Below, in pieces: positions 42,877 through 52,828 of a stretch of 57,616 nucleotides of DNA; within the stretch, counting starts at the first letter, position 1; each line of letters opens with the position of its first letter. The translations under genes and the position numbers were made by a program. Source of the DNA: Vermamoeba vermiformis (taxonomy: Eukaryota). Under the pieces are notes generated by a model, which worked only from the letters and a program-made list of their open reading frames with translations, was not told the origin of the DNA and ran no database searches. The DNA lies in NCBI GenBank assembly GCA_045837725.1, contig JBEWZL010000203.1:62001-119616 (forward strand). Reading direction: 5' to 3'.

Positions 42877-44974
42877 ATGTCTTATCAATATCAACCCGTT
42901 GGGGCAGCAAATCCTCAAGTTCCTCAGCCGGTCTTGTACGCACCCGGTCCTACTTCTGCAGCTCCTGCTGCTCAGCCTCAGTATGCTTATGGAACAGTAG
43001 ACGTACCTATTTCTGGTCCTGTGATTCAACAACGATTTGAGCCTGTTTCATCTTATCGCGATCCTGCTTTTATTGTTTTATTTGTCCTGCATTTGATTGG
43101 TTTGGGTAAGAATTAATATAGCAAGAATAATTATTCTTATATCTATCTAACTCGAATAGTAATTATTTGAGAACCTTAATTTAATTTCGATTTTTCGCAG
43201 TGAAACAAATCATTAGATCCGTATTAAATAATAATGTAGTCGTGCGCTTAAAGCGTGCAATCATAGTTATTAATAATATTAATATTACCAGCTTTGAAGG
43301 TTATTTATTGCAATTACTCATATTGACACAATACTTTCTTATCTATAGTCTAAAATTGCATGCATTAACGAGGATATTGTAGGCGTTATTTTTGCCTTAA
43401 GTTTAACCCGCCCTTATCTCGATCCCAACCAAAGATTAATTTCCGATCTTGACGACAACGAATTATGGCCTGTGATCAAAACTATCGCTGTCTTGGTCGG
43501 TTCTGGCATTGGCATGAGCGTTATTTGGCTCAATTTGATGAATGCTTTCCCTTACTCGATGATTTACGTTGGTCTTGTCGGTAAGAATCGCGTCACGATC
43601 TAGACGCCCTGTAGTTTCTTAATTAACATTGCTGTGAATTAGGCAACCTTGTATTGTTTACTCTCGCTGGCGTCTATTCATTCATGTACAGTACGTAGCT
43701 ATACTCACTTATTGATGATTGTTCAACCACTCACATCCGCGCTTCAGACAACATTTGGGGTGGCATTATTTGCCTCATCTTCGTGCTCTGGTGGGTTTTC
43801 TTCTGGATCTCAGTTCGTGCACGCATTCCTTTCGCAGCTGAAGTTCTTCGCACCGTTACCACGGTCGCTAAGATGTACCCTGGCACGCAGTTCACCGCGT
43901 ACATCTCCTTGCTCGTTCTCGTAAGTATCCAAGCTTCTCATGATAGTACAGCTATTAACTAGTGATTAGATTGTATGGCAAGCCTTCTGGTCTTACACTG
44001 CGATGAAGAGTCAATTCGTGTTCGAGAAGAACGTGTACTCGGGCTTGATTGTTTTCTTCTTGTTCTCGTTCTACTGGGTTGCTCAAGGTACCTACTAATT
44101 GTTTCGTAATACGTCCTCTATTCGTTGGCTCACAATGCTTGTCTGTAGTCATTAAGAACACCGTGCACGTCACTGTTTCTGGTTTGTTCGCCACGTGGTA
44201 CTTCATGAGCGGTACTGTTGGAGTTCCTCCTCACCCCACTGCTGGTTCATTCAAGCGGTATGTGTTCTACATTTAGAATAATTGGTTCGTGGTTTAATAA
44301 CAAAGTTGTGCAGTGCCATCACCACATCGTTTGGTTCAATCTGCTTGGGTAGTATGATTGTGGCTGCTATCCAAACTCTTCGTGCTCTCGTTCGATCCCT
44401 TCGTGGTCGAAACAATCTCCTTGCTGCCATCGCTGACTGCATTCTTGGTTGCATTGACGGTCTTGTTCAATATTTTAACGTAAGTTGTAACGTGTTCGTG
44501 TCAATACCTGACTAATCGATGCTCGCGAAGCACTATGCTTTTATCCAAGTCGCCATCTACGGCAAGACTTTCTGCGCTGCTGCCAAGTCCACTTGGAGCT
44601 TGATTCAAGACGCCGGCATTGAAGCCATTATCAACGACAACTTGATTGGTGGTGTACTCACTTCGGGTTGCTTCATTGGTGCTATTGCTACTGGTATTAT
44701 TGGTGCTGTTGTTGGTGGTATTTTTGTTGGTGGAGAAAGCGGTTGGATCCTTGGTGTCTCTCTTGGTGTTATTGTAAGTTTCACTGTTTGTAAGTTAGTA
44801 ATGGTACTAACTACTTCACTCCAGATTGGATTTGTAATGTTGATCTTGGCTATGCAAGTCATTGATAGTGGTGTTTCTACTATTTTTGTGTGCTTTGCTG
44901 AGGACCGTGAAGCTTTGCGTCGCAACCAACCTGAGTTGTATGAGCGCCTTAGAGTCACTTATAACTTGTATTAA
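42877..44974 (+). CDS. Choline transporter-like (CTL/SLC44, PNS1-like) membrane protein
   Basis: Multiple TM segments; TTSFGSICLGS, YFNHYAFIQVAIYGK.FC.AAK.TW.L and STIFVCFAED. Confidence 0.92.
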
Positions 44975-45010
44975 ATTGCCTTGATGTTTATAGTAAAGTT
45001 ATCATTATTA

Positions 45011-46250
45011 TCATTTGTCTTCAATCCTTGGTAGCTTTGAATGGTAAATTGGTAAATGAGCATGATTAACTTGGTTCTTGTTGTGATTCTGCACATTTGT
45101 ACTTTCTGCACCATCACTGTCATTGACTTTAATGGCTGAGAGCTTGGCTGCAAGGTCACAATTAGTGTTGCATTGGGTCAACTTTGGCACTTGATTGCTT
45201 TGATTTCTCAGGTTGATTCTATGAAGGGTGAGCTCTTGATGGCGAACCCAGCTGCACACCTTTGCTACACCAACCAAAGGAGTTTGTGCTGGGTCACTGA
45301 AGATTTTTTTTTGAAGGGCACCCAATGGAAATTTTAAGGGGAGATTAGCAGAGCTACTGTATATGGTGAAGTGCAGTGCTGTCTATTGTGGATGGGCACA
45401 TCAAGGCAGTATGCTTAAAAATTGCACAGATTTGTCAACTCAATCAAAAATTGGTTTGTCCTTAAATACACATTAGCCATCATTTGTTGGGTGTGAAGAG
45501 GCTTGCAAATTTGCTTTACCCATTGTTGTTGTGCCATTGATTAATAAATTTTGTGGTTACTACATTGTGATTAAATTGCAAAATTTGGCAGCTCCCTTAA
45601 CCTCCCAGCCATATTTTGGCTTGTAAATTATTTTTGAACTTAGACAATAAACAAAGAGATGCTCAAGCCCAACTTTGTGCATTCTCTAAAGTGCAGTCCT
45701 CAAGCTTCTTTATGCTTGTTCACTCCCCTCAGGTGCTTCAATCTGATCTCCAATCCTCTCTCCATCATAGTTGTTGTCCATTGAATTAGAAACAAATATG
45801 AGTGAGCAAAAAACAAATCTTGGTGATTTTTGGTAGATGACATTTTCTTAAACGTTCTTTTTATACATATATTGCACTTTAAGACTATACCTAACATTTT
45901 CTTTGTTTACACATGTAAAAACATTCCACAACCATTTTCTCAATCCAACCAAGTAAATGCTGGCATTACCCTTGGTGGTAACAATGTGACAGCATTTGGT
46001 AAGGCTTTTTGAGTAACTCACCATTTGTTCTCGCTCCTTATCTCGGTTCTCTGTGGTAAAGTTGATGAAATTACATGTCTTGCTCTTTACAAGTAATAAC
46101 AAGGTATATTTATTTAAAAAACAAGCCTTATCTCTGAGACAAAATAAAACTGCACCCAAATCAAGCAAATTACCATTGCTCAGTCACCTCCATTTTTTCA
46201 GGAGCCAGCTGCTCTACTTGAGCATTATATAGCCTTTTAGGGCTTAGGGG
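45011..46250 (-). pseudogene. CpG-depleted degraded gene-like fragment of unknown family
   Basis: Minus-strand splice-like sites and short ORFs (for example 45011-45325) that do not join into a clean frame. Confidence 0.3.
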
Positions 46251-46324
46251 TCTTAGGGCAAATAAAGAAGAAAACATATCCTTAAAATTTTGCTTTATTT
46301 TTGCAGCTACAACCCAGCTGCTAG

Positions 46325-46457
46325 GCATGGCAATAGGTTACAGAGGCCCAGAGCGTGACCAACAGGTCACAAGGACTGAGTGCGTGACCAACAGGTCACA
46401 AGGACTGAGTGCGTGACCAGCAGGTCACAGAGGGCCGAGAGCGTGACCAGCAGGTCA
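46325..46457. repeat. 29-30 bp tandem repeat, 4 copies plus 1 degenerate, each with the palindrome GTGACC-N4-GGTCA(C)
   Basis: GCGTGACC begins at 46353, 46382, 46411 and 46441. Confidence 0.95.
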
Positions 46458-46471
46458 TTTAATACTGACAT

Positions 46472-46513
46472 ATTCATATATGTAAGTGGGCTTGCCCATA
46501 TAGGGCTAGCCCT
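46472..46513 (+). repeat. Left copy of a 42-bp imperfect direct repeat ending in the palindrome AGGGCTAGCCCT
   Basis: 33/42 identical, ungapped, to 50841-50882. Confidence 0.9.
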
Positions 46514-46775
46514 GACACCCCCTCAAAAAAATAAAGAATATTCGACCCCAATCATTTTTTACTTAAGCAAAATTTTACTTTGGAAAATTATCCGCAGGAA
46601 AAATAAGAAGTCTCACCCTGGGTGACTCTCAAAAAAAACTAAGTCCTGCAGGTCGTCTCCACGTGGAGACGATCTCATTTAATATGACCTAAATGACTGA
46701 TGTTAGGCATTAGGGATACAATTCCTATCACTAATAAACATTGATACTATATTAAATACGGGAGGGTCCATTACT

Positions 46776-47470
46776 GATCCTGAGCGAGACTCGCTAAGGA
46801 TGGGAAAAAGAAAAAAAGAAGGGGGGTTCAGGGGGCGGAGCCCCCTGATAAGTCATTCGTTCAACATTTTTTCATCCCGAGCGAGACTTGCTAAGGATGA
46901 ACCTTAACTCTTCTTGGTATTCATGTAGAATAATGCGAGACATCCCGAGCGAGACTCGTCTGGGATAGAAATTAATTAACCCTATAACCTGACGAACAAA
47001 TTGTTAGTTCCATCCCTGGCGAGACTCGCTCGGGATAGAATCCAATAACTTAAGGTGCATTATAATATAATTTTCAACCATTCAATCCTTAAAACCCAGC
47101 TGCTCCTCTCATCCCAAGCGAGACTCGCTCGGGATGGAAATTGAAACGTACGGGGTGCGAAAACTGTAATTTTACATCAGAATATGAAATTGCCTCCCAA
47201 AATTAGCAAGGGAGGAAAATCTATAAAATTTCCGTTCGGTTTTTTTTTCATTTTACTTTCACTTACCACACACACCACCACAACTCAACACCGTAACTTT
47301 GTTTTTTTTTATAACAAAAATGAGCAATAATTCCAAAGGTACCCCCTCTGGTCGCCAAACCCGAAGCTCCTCGACGACTACAGCAAGGAGCCCCGGGATA
47401 AGCTCACGGTAAGTAAAGTTTTATTGAAATTTATTTCCGAAGTCATCCCGAGCGAGACTCGCCTGGGATG
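46776..47470. repeat. Six interspaced 27-bp palindromes (consensus CATCCCGAGCGAG-A-CTCGCTCGGGATG) with unique spacers
   Basis: Copies at 46776, 46873, 46941, 47011, 47110 and 47444; spacers of 70, 41, 43, 72 and 307 bp. Confidence 0.95.
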
Positions 47471-48779
47471 GATTAAACAATCTCTATTTTTGAAATTGAA
47501 TTATGTTTACCATAGATTTTTTTTAAAGAATTCATCCTGTATACAATGGGATCTTCGGCGCTGTCCGAGGCCGCTAGGCCGAGGGCAGCGCGTCTCAAAA
47601 TTTGCCCAAATACACTTCAGAGGAGGCTAATTATGCCCAAATTATCAAAAACAATGAGAAAGTTGAGGTAAGTCCGAAATAATTTTGCGAAAATTTGGGT
47701 GCCGATGACAACAACTGATGAGAGGGCTGATGACAATGCTGATGACAGGCTTTGGTAGAAAAAGATGATCAGAATAATAAAATAATAGCTTTAATACATG
47801 TAAATATGCTGTTACAAGCTTAAAAATTGATTTTGGAAAGGATTCGGCAAAGTGCGAAAAAAATTAAAATATTCGAATTGCGCAATTGATGCACTGCTTG
47901 TAAAAAAGGTTCAAAATATGAACAAAGAGAATGAAAATGACTGAAAAAGGTGACAAATTTAATAAAATAGCACATCTGCAAATTTGCAGATTTGGTTGCA
48001 GAAGGTGCAATTTAGCTGGTTTATTTGATACCAGTTAGCAGGCAGGCTGTAAGACTGCCTGCAATCAGAGGGAAATGGTATAATTGCATTGATACAATTG
48101 TATTTAAAGTGTTTGTGGAGGCTGTAATAGTTTAGAGGCAGGGATGAAGGCCCTGCCTCCCCTCAAGAAGTGCAAGCAACAGGCACTGACTGGCTCTGCA
48201 AATATTTGGCAAAAATTCAATTGAATAAGATCAAGGCAGGACGTAGTACTGCCTTCAAACAAGGGAAACAGGTGGTAGAACTGAAATAAATGAAGTTTGC
48301 AGAGAGTTGGTACTCTTTTTTAGAAACCTGTTTTGCAAGCAATGGAAATGTATGGGCAACCCTGGTGCGGACCTTCAGAATATGCTCTAATAGGTAGTAG
48401 GTGGTGGCTACTAATTATTTCAGTTGGTATTTCAAGTTAGCAAGCGTGTTACCCATACTTCACCAATGCTGCCAATGTTAGGACTCAAGTTGTTTGATAA
48501 ACAGCCTCCAAGCAGTATTTTTTTTGGCAAACTGAAGTTAAAGTAGATTATTAGACATGTAGTAGCCTCACTATAATCATTAGATATCTTAAATCATAGG
48601 TACATATTCAAAACTTGCAATTCATGGAGTTTTTTCACTGGATCTGCTAAAATTTTGATGAAACATGCTATATATGATGTCCCTATAGTATATACTATTA
48701 GTATAGGATGTAAATATAATGGCCAAGCTCAAATGATACAAGAAGGATGCTAGGTGGTGCTTGTGTAGGCCACTGGAGC

Positions 48780-49025
48780 TGAAATGCAATCGATTGCAAT
48801 CGAATGCAATCAAATGAAATCGAATGAAATTTTGCATTGAGCAAGGCTGAACAGCTGTGAGTTTGGGCACTTTGGATTCCAGGCACCTTGTTTTACCTGT
48901 CTGGGTACCTAGAATACCTTGGGCACATGCTGGGCACCTAGGATTCCATAAGGAGAGGGGTACCCTGTTGGGCACCTAGGATTCCATGACTGGCTACCTA
49001 CTATTTTGGACACCTAGGATTCTGA
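48780..49025. repeat. 10-bp GAATGCAATC-like microarray followed by degenerate GGGCACCTAGGATTCC repeats
   Basis: About 5 copies of each, seen at 48781-48830 and 48863-49023. Confidence 0.85.
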
Positions 49026-49419
49026 GGATCTTGAATTCCAATAGCTGACAGAGTGGTTGGAGAGGGTACCACTCTCCTTAGGACTTAGGTGAAAAAAATA
49101 AATAAATAATTGCATACAGTGGGTTTTGAACCTGCTCCAGGTAAAAAGCATTTTAAACTGCCATATTCAAAAGCTTGCAATTGATGCAGCTACCTTAGTA
49201 GTTAACAGAATTGATGGCGGTTTGCTTTGTTAGGCTCCTAATATCATGTATTTTCATTACCAATCAAAAAAACTGGAGTTGTAGTTGAAAAGTTTTAATT
49301 CATGAAAAACTAGCTGTTACAAATCACAAAACAATTTTTTTTGTCTAAGTCATTTTGTTGTTTTTTTAAAAACACAGCACCACAAGGGAACCCTTTTTAA
49401 ATTTTAAATTGACACTATA

Positions 49420-50948
49420 ATGCAAAATACTTTCAAGGCCTTTGATAAGGATCAAATGACCAGAGAGTTTACTCACTGGCACTCTTTAAATCTTAGCTGC
49501 AAGGAAGTGGACTGCCCTCTATGCTACAAAGAGCTACAGTTCAAGTCAGTGCTGCCTCATATGAAGAACAACTGCTGCTCTGGTATTCTAAGGTACTCTC
49601 CAGCAACTAGGTACACTATCATTGAATTGTTCTCTGCTACAAATCCCAGGAATAGACCTAAGGTTCATAGCCATAGACCTACTGCTGAGGAGGAGTTAGG
49701 AGGGGAGATAACTAATGTTTTCTCATTCAAATTTGAGGGCACTAAGCTGCTCTACAAAGTAGAAGTCAGGTTCAAAGAGGTCTTTTGGATGGAGAATGCT
49801 CTGCTCAAGAAGTCAACAGAAGGAAGAAAATGGATTCAAAGAGTCAACAGGTGGAGAAAGAGAGGAGAAATGAAGGAGTCTAAAGAACAGATTGAAGCAG
49901 CAGAAGTAATTAGAACAGACCCAATGAACATGAGAAGAATTCCAAAGCCAATGGCTCAACAGATTGATGAAGAGATTGAAGAATACCACATTCAACAAGC
50001 TCTTGAGCAACCAGTTGAAGAAGAGAGAGTGAATAAGAAGAAAAAGAAGAAGAACCAAGTGATAAACTGGGCACTGATCAAATCAAAACTGATCAAGGCT
50101 AAGTACTGGGCTGATCTCATAAAAGAGATTGACTCAGAGTCAAATTATAATAATTCAAGGCTATTGTCATCTACTTTAGTCTCAATAATAAGTTTCTTGA
50201 TGAATGACTTGAAGGCAAAGTCATTTACTAAATTGACAGACCAATACCCAACTCCTGCAAAGTTCTTTCAATCTCTTGATATTAATAAGCTGTTCTTTTT
50301 AACTTTAGTCAAAAGAAGAACAAGAAAGGGAAAGAAGATGGCATCAACAGTTTGCTCAAACATTAGCAGTGTCCTTAAACTACTTAAAATGGTTAAACTA
50401 AATGAAATTGGTTACATTAGGTTAAAACAGTTCAAAGCAGTTAAGAAGTTCTACCTTAATCAAAGGAAGAAAGCAAAAAAGGCAGCCAATGACTTGAAGA
50501 AATACTCAATGAGAATGTCAGTGATGATGGCTGAAGGCAAACTTTGTCCAGAAGAGAGCTTTGCAGCTATATCAGAATTCTCAAAGGAAACAATGCAAGA
50601 GATCGTCAAGTCAAAAGTTCACTTCAGAAAGAATACCATGGTCACAAAAACAAGTGAGTTAATTTTGAATATAAGTAATCAACTAGAACAAAATATCTAA
50701 CTTAACCACTGCTTCAATTAGAGCCACTAAAGCTTCAGAAATGTGAGCAATATCAGCTTTGTTTAATGTGGTCTGTTGGTCTTTCAATTGGCATGCCAAG
50801 AACTAGCTTCTTTCCCAAGATGGTTCTTAATGACACTTTGATTCATATATACTACAGGGCTTGGCCGAACAGGGCTAGCCCTAAAAACTACTCCAAAAGT
50901 AATAAAAACTATTCAAAAAGTGGCATAACAAGGGACACCAAGCACTAA
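49420..50948 (+). CDS. Zn-finger + chromo-like + putative truncated tyrosine recombinase protein
   Basis: Exons 49420-50653 and 50722-50948 splice in frame. It contains CPLC...H...C, a chromo-like segment EITNVFSFKFEGTKLLYKVE...FWMENALL, a helical basic region, and YQLCLMW...GMPRTS resembling YR box I. No HxxR or catalytic Tyr region is seen. Confidence 0.55.
50841..50882 (+). repeat. Right copy of the 42-bp direct repeat, inside the 3' end of the ORF
   Basis: ATTCATATATACTACAGGGCTTGGCCGAACAGGGCTAGCCCT. Confidence 0.9.
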
Positions 50949-51125
50949 CGGAGTTGCCAATTGCTAATGAGGGTCGCCGATCACTTATGAGGGTCGCCGA
51001 TCGCTAATGAGGGTCGCCGATCGCTAACGAGGGTCGCCGATCGCTAACGAGGGTCGCCGATCGCTAACGAGGGTCGCCGATCGCTAACGAGGGTCGCCGA
51101 TCGCTAACGAGGGTTGCCGATTGCT
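50945..51125. repeat. 20-bp minisatellite CTAACGAGGGTCGCCGATCG, 8 copies plus 1 degenerate
   Basis: GGGTYGCCGA recurs every 20 bp from 50971 to 51111. Confidence 0.97.
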
Positions 51126-51269: not shown

Positions 51270-51865
51270 TTGGGAGATGATGTAAAAAAATCTCATTTGT
51301 TAATGCAAGGTTGCCTCCAGTGGCAGATGATCTACTAAAACTTTAAGTTGTTGGTTGTCTCCACTGTGGAGATGGAGACGATCTACAAAAAAAAAACTAA
51401 GTCCCAGGAGGTTGTCTCCACTGCGGAGACGATCTACTAAAAAAACAAAGTTGTTGGAGGTCGTCTCCACGTGGAGACGATCTGCTAAAAAACAAAGTCC
51501 TAGGAAGTTGTCTCCACGGAGACGATGCCAGAAAAAAACCAAGTCCTAGGAGGTCGTCTCCACCGTGGAGACGATGTAAAAAAAATCTAAGTACAAACTT
51601 TGTGACCGCTCTGGTCACGAACTAAAAAATTAAAGTCGTGCAAGATTGTCTCCAGTGGGAGACGATCTACTAAAACACTAAGTTGTAGGAGGTTGTCTCC
51701 ACCGTGGAGACGATCTACAAAAAACACTAAGTCCTAGAGGTCGTCTCCACCGCGGAGACGATCTACTAAAAAAACAAAGTCGTAGGAGGTCGTCTCCACG
51801 TGGAGACGATGTCTGAAAAAAACAAAGTCCAACAGTCGTCTCCTTGAGGACGAGTCAGCAAAAAC
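51270..51865. repeat. ~50-bp satellite with palindrome TCGTCTCC-(ACGT)-GGAGACGA and an A-tract, about 11 copies
   Basis: Directly visible. A higher-order duplication of about 335 bp (51305 vs 51640) is present, with a solo copy at 46652-46675. Confidence 0.95.
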
Positions 51866-52650: not shown

Positions 52651-52828
52651 CGAGAGAAACGAGACTTTTGAAATTAAATGAAGAAATTTACGTTGTCTGC
52701 CGTGCCAGGTTTTTTCCGAGCACGGGACGCAATTTTAGCAGCCACGTGCTGTCGACGAATGTCGGTTTTCACGGTTTGACTAAATCAGGAAGTGACCGTT
52801 ACAAATACCCCAGCGAGATTCGCACACT

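Follow-up and report, generated by a model that had tools for sequence, protein, structure and literature searches.

The window analysed here, a 57,616-nt stretch of a Vermamoeba vermiformis contig, has a eukaryotic context, as the original prediction held: it carries choline-transporter-like, proprotein-convertase P-domain and F-box ORFs together with GTAAGT donor motifs. Within non-coding DNA at 46776-47470, a near-palindrome of 27 nt is present six times in one orientation. The copies, c1 to c6, start at 46776, 46873, 46941, 47011, 47110 and 47444, that is, at start-to-start spacings of 97, 68, 70, 99 and 334 nt, with c1 to c5 lying within 361 nt and c6 following 307 nt beyond c5. Re-measuring the six copies and the spacers between them (70, 41, 43, 72 and 307 nt) returned values identical to those first given. 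No reading frame spans the copies, which fall in differing frames of the ORF list, and the spacers hold no ORF. The block pattern ATCCNNNGCGAGWCTCGC, searched with at most two mismatches, has 12 matches, two in each copy and one per arm (100 shuffles averaged 0.12), and the idealised 27-mer with at most three mismatches recovers four of the six sites where 0.00 are expected by chance, c1 and c3 each differing from it by four changes. Outside the array, the 27-mer is absent from the other ~56.9 kb of the window and from the related loci L001-L003 (21.7 kb), and no target-site duplications were seen at the aligned copy flanks.

All six copies were read on the + strand and none is a perfect palindrome, so that their earlier description as near-perfect is generous: the Watson-Crick pairs per copy, sorted, number 9, 10, 10, 11, 11 and 12 of 13. 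The best copy, c5 (47110-47136), has 12/13 pairs and a predicted DNA hairpin of -9.6 kcal/mol, and none of 200 shuffles was as good; the same is true of c1 (GATCCTGAGCGAGACTCGCTAAGGATG; 46776-46802; 11/13 pairs, -8.1 kcal/mol) and of c2 (46873-46899; 10/13 pairs, -7.4 kcal/mol). For c4 (47011-47037; 10/13 pairs, -7.5 kcal/mol) 6 of 200 shuffles were as good, and for the most decayed copy, c3 (46941-46967; 9/13 pairs, -5.5 kcal/mol), 17 of 200. The last copy, c6 (47444-47470; 11/13 pairs), lies inside a putative first intron, 35 nt 3' of the GTAAGT at 47409. Each copy is one to four changes away from an ideal palindrome, and the copies are more degenerate than typical CRISPR repeats. The central base is A in 6/6 copies (two-sided p = 0.03), which gives them their common orientation.

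What is conserved among the copies is the pattern ATCC-N3-GCGAGACTCGC-N3-GGAT, in which three blocks, with centres ~10.5 bp or about one helical turn apart, are separated by two variable 3-bp stretches. Across the six copies 17 of 27 positions are invariant, and positions 6-8 and 20-22 account for 12 of the 17 changes relative to the ideal palindrome. Paired cells amount to 87.2% compared with 89.0% in shuffles (467/500 shuffles at least equal), one compensatory cell is seen where 1.3 are expected, and the pair 7/21 is non-Watson-Crick in 6/6 copies. Since covariation is not above that of shuffles and since this pair is broken in every copy, conservation acts on the sequence blocks, not on base pairing. 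The CpGs inside the palindromes are unequally preserved, the inner ones being intact in 11/12 cases and the outer ones in 5/12 (Fisher p = 0.027), which speaks for a constrained core and against uniform decay. The array comprises only six copies, and statistics on it are thin.

It is possible that the palindromes function as hairpins in single-stranded nucleic acid, either as RNA-processing or stability signals or as DNA cruciform, recombination or replication signals. Every copy can be folded, at -5.5 to -9.6 kcal/mol as DNA, with none of 200 shuffles as good for four of the six; the copies share one orientation, and the mismatch at 7/21 in every copy could itself be structural. However, pairing does not exceed what the column make-up yields, with its single compensatory cell, and the shuffles that match c3 and c4 weaken the case further. 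Dicer-type precursors need stems longer than 13 bp, and the stems here, of at most 13 bp, are too short for them. A search of Rfam gave no match at gathering score, and no tRNA was found. We regard this explanation as very unlikely. Sub-threshold Rfam miRNA models (24-27 versus 57-93 bits) were set aside, as they merely reflect neighbouring palindromes pairing with one another.

A second possibility is that the array has no present function and is left over from an old duplication (tandem or segmental, with a unit of ~70-100 or 167/334 nt) or from local micro-duplications, the palindromes being simply its least-decayed part. Such an origin predicts the common orientation of all six copies and agrees with the lack of covariation and with the many changes of the CpG-decay type (TG/CA). 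The spacings are also patterned, c1 to c5 and c5 to c6 both measuring 334 nt, c1 to c3 165 nt and c3 to c5 169 nt. However, the spacers retain no residual similarity. Spacer-spacer comparison places 9/10 pairs within shuffles, the sole exception, spacer 1 versus spacer 5, being a single 20-nt local match, and so bears out the original prediction that the spacers are mutually unrelated while the repeats are conserved. The two 334-nt halves are 28% identical at the same offset versus 26% when shuffled, their global alignment scores no better than shuffles, and thus no trace of a 334-nt duplication was found between them; nor was any mirror-image relation found between spacers 1 and 4 or 2 and 3. 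That the spacers are erased while 17 positions are invariant in 6/6 copies means that neutral decay cannot explain the array, and the sparing of inner relative to outer CpGs likewise speaks against a relic, which we consider quite unlikely.

The surroundings of the array raise the question of whether it belongs to a mobile element. It begins 100 nt past the end of a dispersed-repeat block (46472-46677, + strand) that is not part of it. Contigs of run X4 begin or end matching at 46472, 46677 and 50841, marking these as repeat boundaries; a 58-nt block recurs at 50841-50898 (74%), and a single 48-nt unit within 46472-46677, itself containing a perfect 26-nt palindrome, is the one that makes up the satellite at 51373-51830. 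From 45 kb to the window end the tract is repeat-rich and gene-poor, with satellites, in many of which short G+C-rich palindromes form the building blocks: of 34 palindromes detected, 13 have a G+C content of at least 0.5, and none of these lies before 46488. A separate repeat unit (49304-50843, + strand) carries a 426-aa ORF (49420-50700), is 77% identical to L001-L003, which have different flanks, and holds 1 CpG in 1543 nt. An irregular short-motif array lies upstream of this ORF unit both here (48850-49030) and in L001 and L002. With a repeat-rich tract around it and a dispersed block 100 nt away, the array may be part of a mobile element and not of a host promoter.

If so, the 27-mers would be internal or subterminal protein-binding repeats (transposase-binding sites, or a retroelement 5' insulator or enhancer) located inside the terminus 46472-46677 and serving the element. 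The proximity of a block with repeat-boundary edges that recurs at 50841 favours this explanation, as does the irregular motif array of the ORF unit, which suggests that such arrays are habitual in the repeats of this genome. Yet a second array is absent from the window, which extends 46 kb to the left of the array and 10 kb to its right; comparison of 46700-47900 with the remaining window sequence turned up only chance 12-19-mers, and no 27-mer follows the second copy of the terminal block from 50841 onward. The three other ORF-unit copies also lack the 27-mer, their sequences reaching between 33 and 1611 nt ahead of the ORF. Moreover, neither a transposase nor a reverse transcriptase was found by Pfam among 40 ORFs of the flanks, and the array is CpG-normal, whereas recognisable adjacent repeat units are CpG-stripped. 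On balance a mobile-element origin appears unlikely, though it retains appreciable weight. Bacterial REP/BIME sequences, fungal mitochondrial G+C clusters and MITEs are small dispersed palindromic elements, and the copies resemble them as short G+C-rich palindromes within A+T-richer non-coding DNA. They differ in that no dispersed copy is present in 57.6 kb plus 21.7 kb and that target-site duplications are lacking.

The CpG landscape sets the array apart from its immediate neighbours. An island of normal CpG content (46600-47800, ~1.2 kb; o/e 0.73-1.22 in 300-nt windows) encloses both the array and the putative first exons, and is flanked by CpG-depleted DNA at 44900-46400 and 47900-50850 (o/e 0-0.5). 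The claim that the palindrome CpGs survive in a depleted region is thus correct for the flanks but not for the array itself, which sits in CpG-normal DNA, has 17/33 of its CpGs in spacers and has lost most of its outer palindrome CpGs (5/12 intact). Positions 1-44000 are not depleted either (o/e 1.15). The array shares its normal CpG content with the satellite-rich DNA from 50850 to the window end, which counts against the operator function considered below.

The headline of the original prediction was a CRISPR-like or attC-like array. Read in this way, the copies would be an adaptive or cassette array, CRISPR-like, integron/attC-like or composed of lox/FRT-like sites, served by the downstream ORF. 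Like CRISPR arrays, the locus has direct repeats of a partly palindromic 27-nt unit with unique sequence between them; unlike CRISPR arrays, it lies in a eukaryotic host, lacks cas genes, and has degenerate repeats and uneven spacers of 41-307 nt without an ORF, the last of which is promoter- and exon-like. Integron attC sites measure ~57-141 nt, bound ORF-bearing cassettes and adjoin the intI tyrosine recombinase, whereas here the repeats are 27 nt long, the 41-72-nt spacers carry no ORF, and there are neither cassettes nor an integrase. In lox, FRT and dif sites, inverted binding arms surround a 6-8-bp crossover region. The copies share with these sites and with attC the imperfect inverted repeats, and their 13-nt arms have the length of lox/FRT arms, but they have a 1-nt centre instead of 6-8 bp, recur directly at 68-99 nt and lack a recombinase gene. 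A division of the 27-mer into 10+7+10 would fit lox, FRT and dif, but the 7-nt centre would itself be palindromic except for one base. Six directly repeated active recombination sites would be expected to excise one another.

Nor does the downstream ORF supply such a machinery. It had been called YR-like, yet integrase families are found by Pfam in none of its 8 family members (the ORF and 7 close homologues) and none of 21 distant relatives. The ORF at 49420-50700 has no Pfam family at all, a PDB profile search returned unrelated chains only (E = 0.11 and 1.5), and a Foldseek search with its model gave no recombinase among the matches listed and a local chromodomain match (poor model, pLDDT 51.3). 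The 426-aa product is zinc-finger-like and chromodomain-like in character. The supposed link between array and ORF also lacks support, since the ORF belongs to a discrete unit (49304-50843) whose three other copies (L001-L003) have different flanks and no 27-mer in the 33 to 1611 nt covered upstream of the ORF. Among the ORFs of at least 45 aa in 44975-49420, 0/40 reach the Pfam gathering score, with a single sub-threshold CNH match (16.6 versus 26 bits), and no integrase family is seen in the flanks. In blastn searches of 46700-47500 against phage and plasmid collections there was no match; the pattern ATCC-N3-GCGAGACTCGC-N3-GGAT, searched as a pattern only, has 0 matches in viral contigs, which include giant-virus and virophage DNA, and relatives of the 426-aa ORF are likewise absent from viral contigs. 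The features that define a CRISPR-like or integron-like array already contradict such a reading, and we consider an adaptive or cassette array almost certainly wrong.

Three matches to the pattern in prokaryote genomes, from two bacterial MAGs, were rejected as unrelated: they are G+C-rich terminator-like hairpins whose inner bases differ, and two of them are one duplicated sequence. We estimate that chance alone would give ~2-4 matches to 19 fixed bases across 596 Gb. A literature search with the 11-nt core string alone returned work about a pseudorabies vaccine and about the engineered production of glycolic acid, which we treated as unrelated.

In the 307-nt spacer between c5 and c6, a TATA-like box is followed by an ATG and then by a GTAAGT donor; spacers 2-4 have a G+C content of 0.30-0.34. 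The TATA-like box (TATAAAA, 47222-47228, + strand) follows c5 by 86 nt and precedes the ATG by 98 nt, and is the sole + strand occurrence in 46000-48000, although as a signal it is weak: the whole window has 14 TATAAAA, 8 on the + and 6 on the - strand. A putative first exon would extend from the ATG at 47320 to 47408, ahead of the GTAAGT donor at 47409, on the + strand according to its motifs, the strand of the reads being ambiguous; a second GTAAGT is found at 47668 (+). From a diverged strain, a small number of RNA reads map to 47298-47437, including four with a common boundary at 47298 in run X14, in which the depth on 47298-47437 is ~0.8 compared with 3-7 on the adjacent choline-transporter-like exon. 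The two RNA runs carry the same species label, but their source strain is 90-95% alike (33/40 and 22/30 reads), and most non-coding DNA is not mappable with them. Pieces from the aquifer run X3 flank the interval 46787-47196, none falling within it, at a depth of 2-8 that is too low to bear on the array. The exon-1 peptide (a 61-aa frame) has no relatives in a collection of 5.8 billion proteins. Since the peptide is without a relative, the reads stem from a divergent strain and TATAAAA occurs 14 times, the candidate gene is a weak one.

A more appealing scenario is that the six 27-mers lie in a regulatory region and together make up a homotypic cluster of operator-like sites to which a dimeric DNA-binding protein would attach, an explanation that we adopt tentatively as the best available and would rate just short of an even call. 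Operators for a dimeric protein had been among the options listed under the CRISPR-like headline, and it is this option, not the headline, that fits best, given three blocks about one helical turn apart and no compensatory change beyond expectation. Each 27-mer would be read as double-stranded DNA by a sequence-specific protein, as one dimer or two dimers. Because the block centres are ~10.5 bp apart, ATCC, GCGAGACTCGC and GGAT would be contacted on one helix face, and the 3-bp stretches between them could vary freely. Of the six sites, five precede the group formed by the TATA-like box, ATG and GTAAGT by 184-544 nt, and the sixth falls just inside the putative first intron. From these positions, and from the CpG-normal island with its depleted flanking DNA (o/e 0-0.35), we infer that the cluster may serve a small transcription unit as its upstream regulatory module, whether by activation, repression or boundary formation; the status of this unit as a gene, and its regulation by the sites through a bound dimer, are likewise inferred. 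At 27 bp, the motif is long for one transcription-factor site, which counts against an operator.

Clusters of this general kind have well-known counterparts. The yeast GAL1-10 UAS, with four Gal4 17-mers, is a homotypic cluster of the sort that promoters and enhancers contain, and in viral or episomal elements for origin function and maintenance, such as EBV oriP with its EBNA1 sites and the papillomavirus E2 sites, repeated dyad-symmetric sites serve dimeric proteins. The array resembles the viral elements in its multiple palindromic copies, some of them closely spaced, and differs from them in its chromosomal eukaryotic context, without viral genes or a viral-contig match. Homotypic clustering of transcription-factor binding sites is a described concept that appears, for example, in PMC4621482. 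As in such clusters, one dyad-symmetric motif recurs here over a few hundred bp of non-coding sequence beside a putative start, with conservation of the motif only; unlike in such clusters, the motif is a 27-bp three-block one with a single central-base orientation, the factor is putative and the transcription unit weakly supported.

It is also conceivable that the cluster is a protein-bound boundary or maintenance element, in which a dimeric factor would keep the 1.2-kb island free of CpG-stripping cytosine methylation or would tether or partition mobile DNA. The 167/334-nt spacing of c1, c3, c5 and c6 might then reflect placement relative to nucleosomes. We consider this highly improbable. 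According to PMC2173808, the gypsy insulator of Drosophila consists of 12 clustered Su(Hw) binding sites in a retrotransposon. The array is like it in being a tight cluster of putative protein-binding motifs with A+T-rich spacers that adjoins repeat-element DNA, and a boundary role would fit a CpG-normal island between CpG-depleted repeats. Unlike in gypsy, the motifs here are palindromic, and there is no sequence relation between the two.

Should the operator interpretation be true, the locus would represent ordinary eukaryotic cis-regulation by a cluster of identical binding sites and would have no bearing on CRISPR-like immunity or integron-like cassettes in eukaryotes. The pattern ATCC-N3-GCGAGACTCGC-N3-GGAT nevertheless offers a clean, long and testable bait motif for a DNA-binding protein of a poorly studied microbial eukaryote. 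If instead the cluster were a boundary or maintenance element, it would be an insulator-like device of a kind described so far mainly in animals. Finally, the array marks a sharp border between CpG-normal DNA and CpG-stripped repeats and may thereby provide a handle on how methylation or mutation of repeats is confined.

The 27-nt repeat is real, statistically solid and neatly built. Its six copies, c1 to c6, start at 46776, 46873, 46941, 47011, 47110 and 47444 (array 46776-47470), and their start-to-start distances of 97, 68, 70, 99 and 334 nt leave spacers of 70, 41, 43, 72 and 307 nt; the coordinates, copy number and spacer lengths are exactly those of the original prediction. Repetition of the 27-mer is far beyond chance, as the block pattern ATCCNNNGCGAGWCTCGC with at most two mismatches matched both arms in all six copies (12 matches, versus 0.12 expected from 100 shuffles). 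The idealised, perfectly palindromic 27-mer found four of the six places with at most three mismatches (0.00 expected), c1 and c3 each being four changes away from it. No extra copies, half-sites or cores lie outside the array within the 57.6-kb window, the sole other entry being a one-mismatch 11-mer at 52813, which is at chance level.

The copies had been described as near-perfect palindromes, but none of the six is perfect: 11, 10, 9, 10, 12 and 11 of the 13 Watson-Crick pairs are present in c1 to c6, respectively, with pair 7/21 disrupted in all of them. In the six-copy alignment 17 positions are invariant (ATCC at 2-5, GCGAGACT at 9-16, G at 18 and GGAT at 23-26), while positions 6-8 and 20-22 account for 12 of the 17 deviations from the ideal palindrome. 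Thus, the repeat consists of three conserved blocks, spaced about 10.5 bp centre to centre, and two variable triplets between them. The central base on the + strand is A, never T, in all six copies (two-sided p = 0.03), and the right flank tends to GAA(A/T)T, indicating that the copies are direct repeats of one polarity. The copies lie in differing frames, with no reading frame extending across them. It is very unlikely that the array acts as nucleic-acid hairpins. Folded as single-stranded DNA, the copies reach -5.5 to -9.6 kcal/mol, and four of the six fold better than all 200 shuffles (the exceptions are c3, with 17 shuffles as good, and c4, with 6). The pair counts of the alignment give no sign of selection on pairing: paired cells amount to 87.2% versus 89.0% in shuffles (467 of 500 at least as high), compensatory cells to 1 versus 1.3 expected, with a covariation score of 0.108 versus 0.127.

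As originally stated, the spacers are unrelated; this holds in either orientation, nine of the ten pairs scoring no better than shuffles. In the remaining pair, 20 nt of spacer 1 match the end of a putative first exon (46836-46855 and 47386-47406, 17 of 20 identical). Spacer 1 also carries a hairpin of its own with 9-bp arms, TCAGGGGGC-GGA-GCCCCCTGA. The distances c1 to c5 and c5 to c6 are both exactly 334 nt, with c1 to c3 at 165 nt and c3 to c5 at 169 nt, and the four inner spacings (97, 68, 70, 99) are mirror-symmetric without sequence symmetry. This pattern could reflect chance, nucleosome-scale phasing or an old unit of 167/334 nt. The two 334-nt halves (c1-c5 and c5-c6) show no residual similarity, same-offset identity being 28% versus 26% when shuffled. 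That the array is a functionless relic seems improbable, since neutral decay of a duplication, like selection on hairpins, would leave another pattern of conservation.

Within the repeat, intact CpGs number 11 of 12 at the inner positions versus 5 of 12 at the outer ones (p = 0.027). The CpGs had been thought to survive inside a CpG-depleted region. Stripped DNA does flank the array, at 44900-46400 and 47900-50850 (o/e 0-0.5), but the array itself lies in a CpG-normal island of 1.2 kb (about 46600-47800, o/e 0.73-1.22), 17 of its 33 CpGs are in spacers, and the window overall is not CpG-poor (o/e 1.15 over 1-44000). CpG loss with an excess of TpG/CpA is limited to these two repeat-like segments, which suggests that repeats in this organism are targeted by cytosine methylation or by a directed mutation process. 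Taken together, the three invariant blocks on one helix face, the free triplets, the lack of compensatory change, the spared inner CpGs and the erased spacers match the outcome of selection on a double-stranded site for a dyad-symmetric protein, and lead us to favour, tentatively and at somewhat less than even probability, a homotypic cluster of operator-like sites. Dimeric-protein operators were among the options first proposed, and of these they fit best, albeit as putative sites. In a bolder variant, the cluster would act as a boundary between the CpG-stripped repeats.

The main rival, which we consider unlikely, is that the same sort of protein-bound cluster forms part of a mobile element, with the block at 46472 as its terminus. 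The textbook parallel is the gypsy insulator and its 12 Su(Hw) sites (PMC2173808). The array sits in a tract rich in repeats and poor in genes, which extends from 45 kb to the window end and to which G+C-rich palindromes are confined (13 of the 34 palindromes identified reach a G+C of 0.5, all at or beyond 46488). The dispersed block (46472-46677, 100 nt upstream of the array) joins a 58-nt piece, also found at 50841, to a single 48-nt unit containing a perfect 26-nt palindrome, and contigs of run X4 begin or end matching exactly at 46472, 46677 and 50841. The array region (46700-47900) has no similar stretch elsewhere in the window. The 26-nt palindrome, which has 13-nt arms and contains CpG, is present as one copy next to the array (46650-46675) and recurs some ten times 4.8 kb downstream, where it forms the core of the 48-nt satellite at 51373-51830; small palindromes also occur in two further satellites, with units of 20 nt (50945-51125) and 29 nt (46353-46457). 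The segment 52000-57616 (CpG o/e 1.57) holds duplicated units, about 1.65-2.0 kb long, that carry several families of small palindromes with CpG, such as CGACCACCAATGGTCG, as well as GTAAGT sites that are conserved; it has no ORF of at least 100 aa.

Downstream, the 426-aa ORF (49420-50700) has seven close homologues (61-82% identity). Three further copies from metagenome contigs (L001 1164-2726, L002 1498-3060, L003 4-1482) are similar to window 49304-50843 at 77%, ending there on both sides, and aquifer-run contigs likewise break at 49299 and 50843; on these limits, the ORF belongs to a discrete 1.5-kb repeat unit. This unit falls in the second of the CpG-stripped segments. It has a single ORF, sharp ends common to all copies and 1 CpG in 1543 nt (o/e 0.02), and contains no known transposase, recombinase or reverse transcriptase. 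The 27-mer core (at most three mismatches) is absent from all three loci (21.7 kb), which reach 33-1611 nt upstream of the ORF, short of the 1950 nt at which the array ends in the window. An irregular array of GGGCACCTAGGATTCC-type motifs lies upstream of the unit (window 48850-49030, L002 47-900, L001 224-430), and in L002 six copies of a related motif, GGGCACCTAAATTTCCATGGGTAC, precede the ORF. X4 depth rises to 1287 at 48968, within this motif array, so the motif must be very abundant somewhere. The ORF carries a C2HC-like zinc motif, a chromodomain-like stretch and a lysine-rich helical tail. Its earlier description as tyrosine-recombinase-like found support in none of the tests applied: neither it nor its seven homologues has a Pfam family even at E up to 10, no integrase family appears among 21 distant relatives from an exhaustive profile search (three carry chromodomains), a PDB sequence search gave no meaningful match, and Foldseek with a poor model (pLDDT 51.3) gave, among the matches listed, no recombinase but a local chromodomain match to MPP8 (probability 0.97-0.99). 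Viral contigs contain no relatives of the ORF.

The window is eukaryotic, its ORFs matching the plasma-membrane choline transporter family, a proprotein-convertase P domain and an F-box, with 61 GTAAGT on the + strand versus 24 on the other. Each of the CRISPR-like, attC-like and lox/FRT-like readings is contradicted by defining features: the host is eukaryotic, the spacers are irregular with promoter-like and exon-like sequence, the centre is 1 nt, the copies are direct repeats at 68-99 nt, and cas or recombinase genes are missing. The predicted lack of cas genes holds, none of the 40 ORFs of at least 45 aa between 44975 and 49420 reaching the Pfam gathering score. The motif had no match in viral contigs, and the three in 596 Gb of prokaryote genomes, about the number estimated for chance, are unrelated bacterial hairpins; blastn against phage and plasmid collections found no match to the array, no Rfam family reached the gathering score, and no tRNA turned up.

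The 307-nt spacer contains TATAAAA at 47222 (one of 14 in the window), ATG at 47320 and a GTAAGT donor at 47409, which puts c6 35 nt into the putative first intron; a second GTAAGT lies farther on, at 47668. The putative exon peptide has no relatives in the protein collection. A few RNA reads on 47298-47437 (four with a common boundary at 47298, run X14), at about one-tenth the depth of the transporter exon, lend weak support to a putative transcribed unit starting just past c5. The two RNA runs, which carry the same species label as the DNA data set that best matches the window, come from a diverged strain, because reads on the choline-transporter-like exon (44400-44975) are 90-95% alike (33 of 40 and 22 of 30 reads) and differ at nearly every third codon position; mapping on non-coding DNA is thus not expected. 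The species label therefore spans at least two well-diverged lineages. Returning to the operator-like cluster, it would most likely serve as the upstream regulatory module of a small putative unit starting near 47250-47320. Ordinary cis-acting DNA bound by protein is the most probable reading of the array, which would represent another instance of an already known kind.
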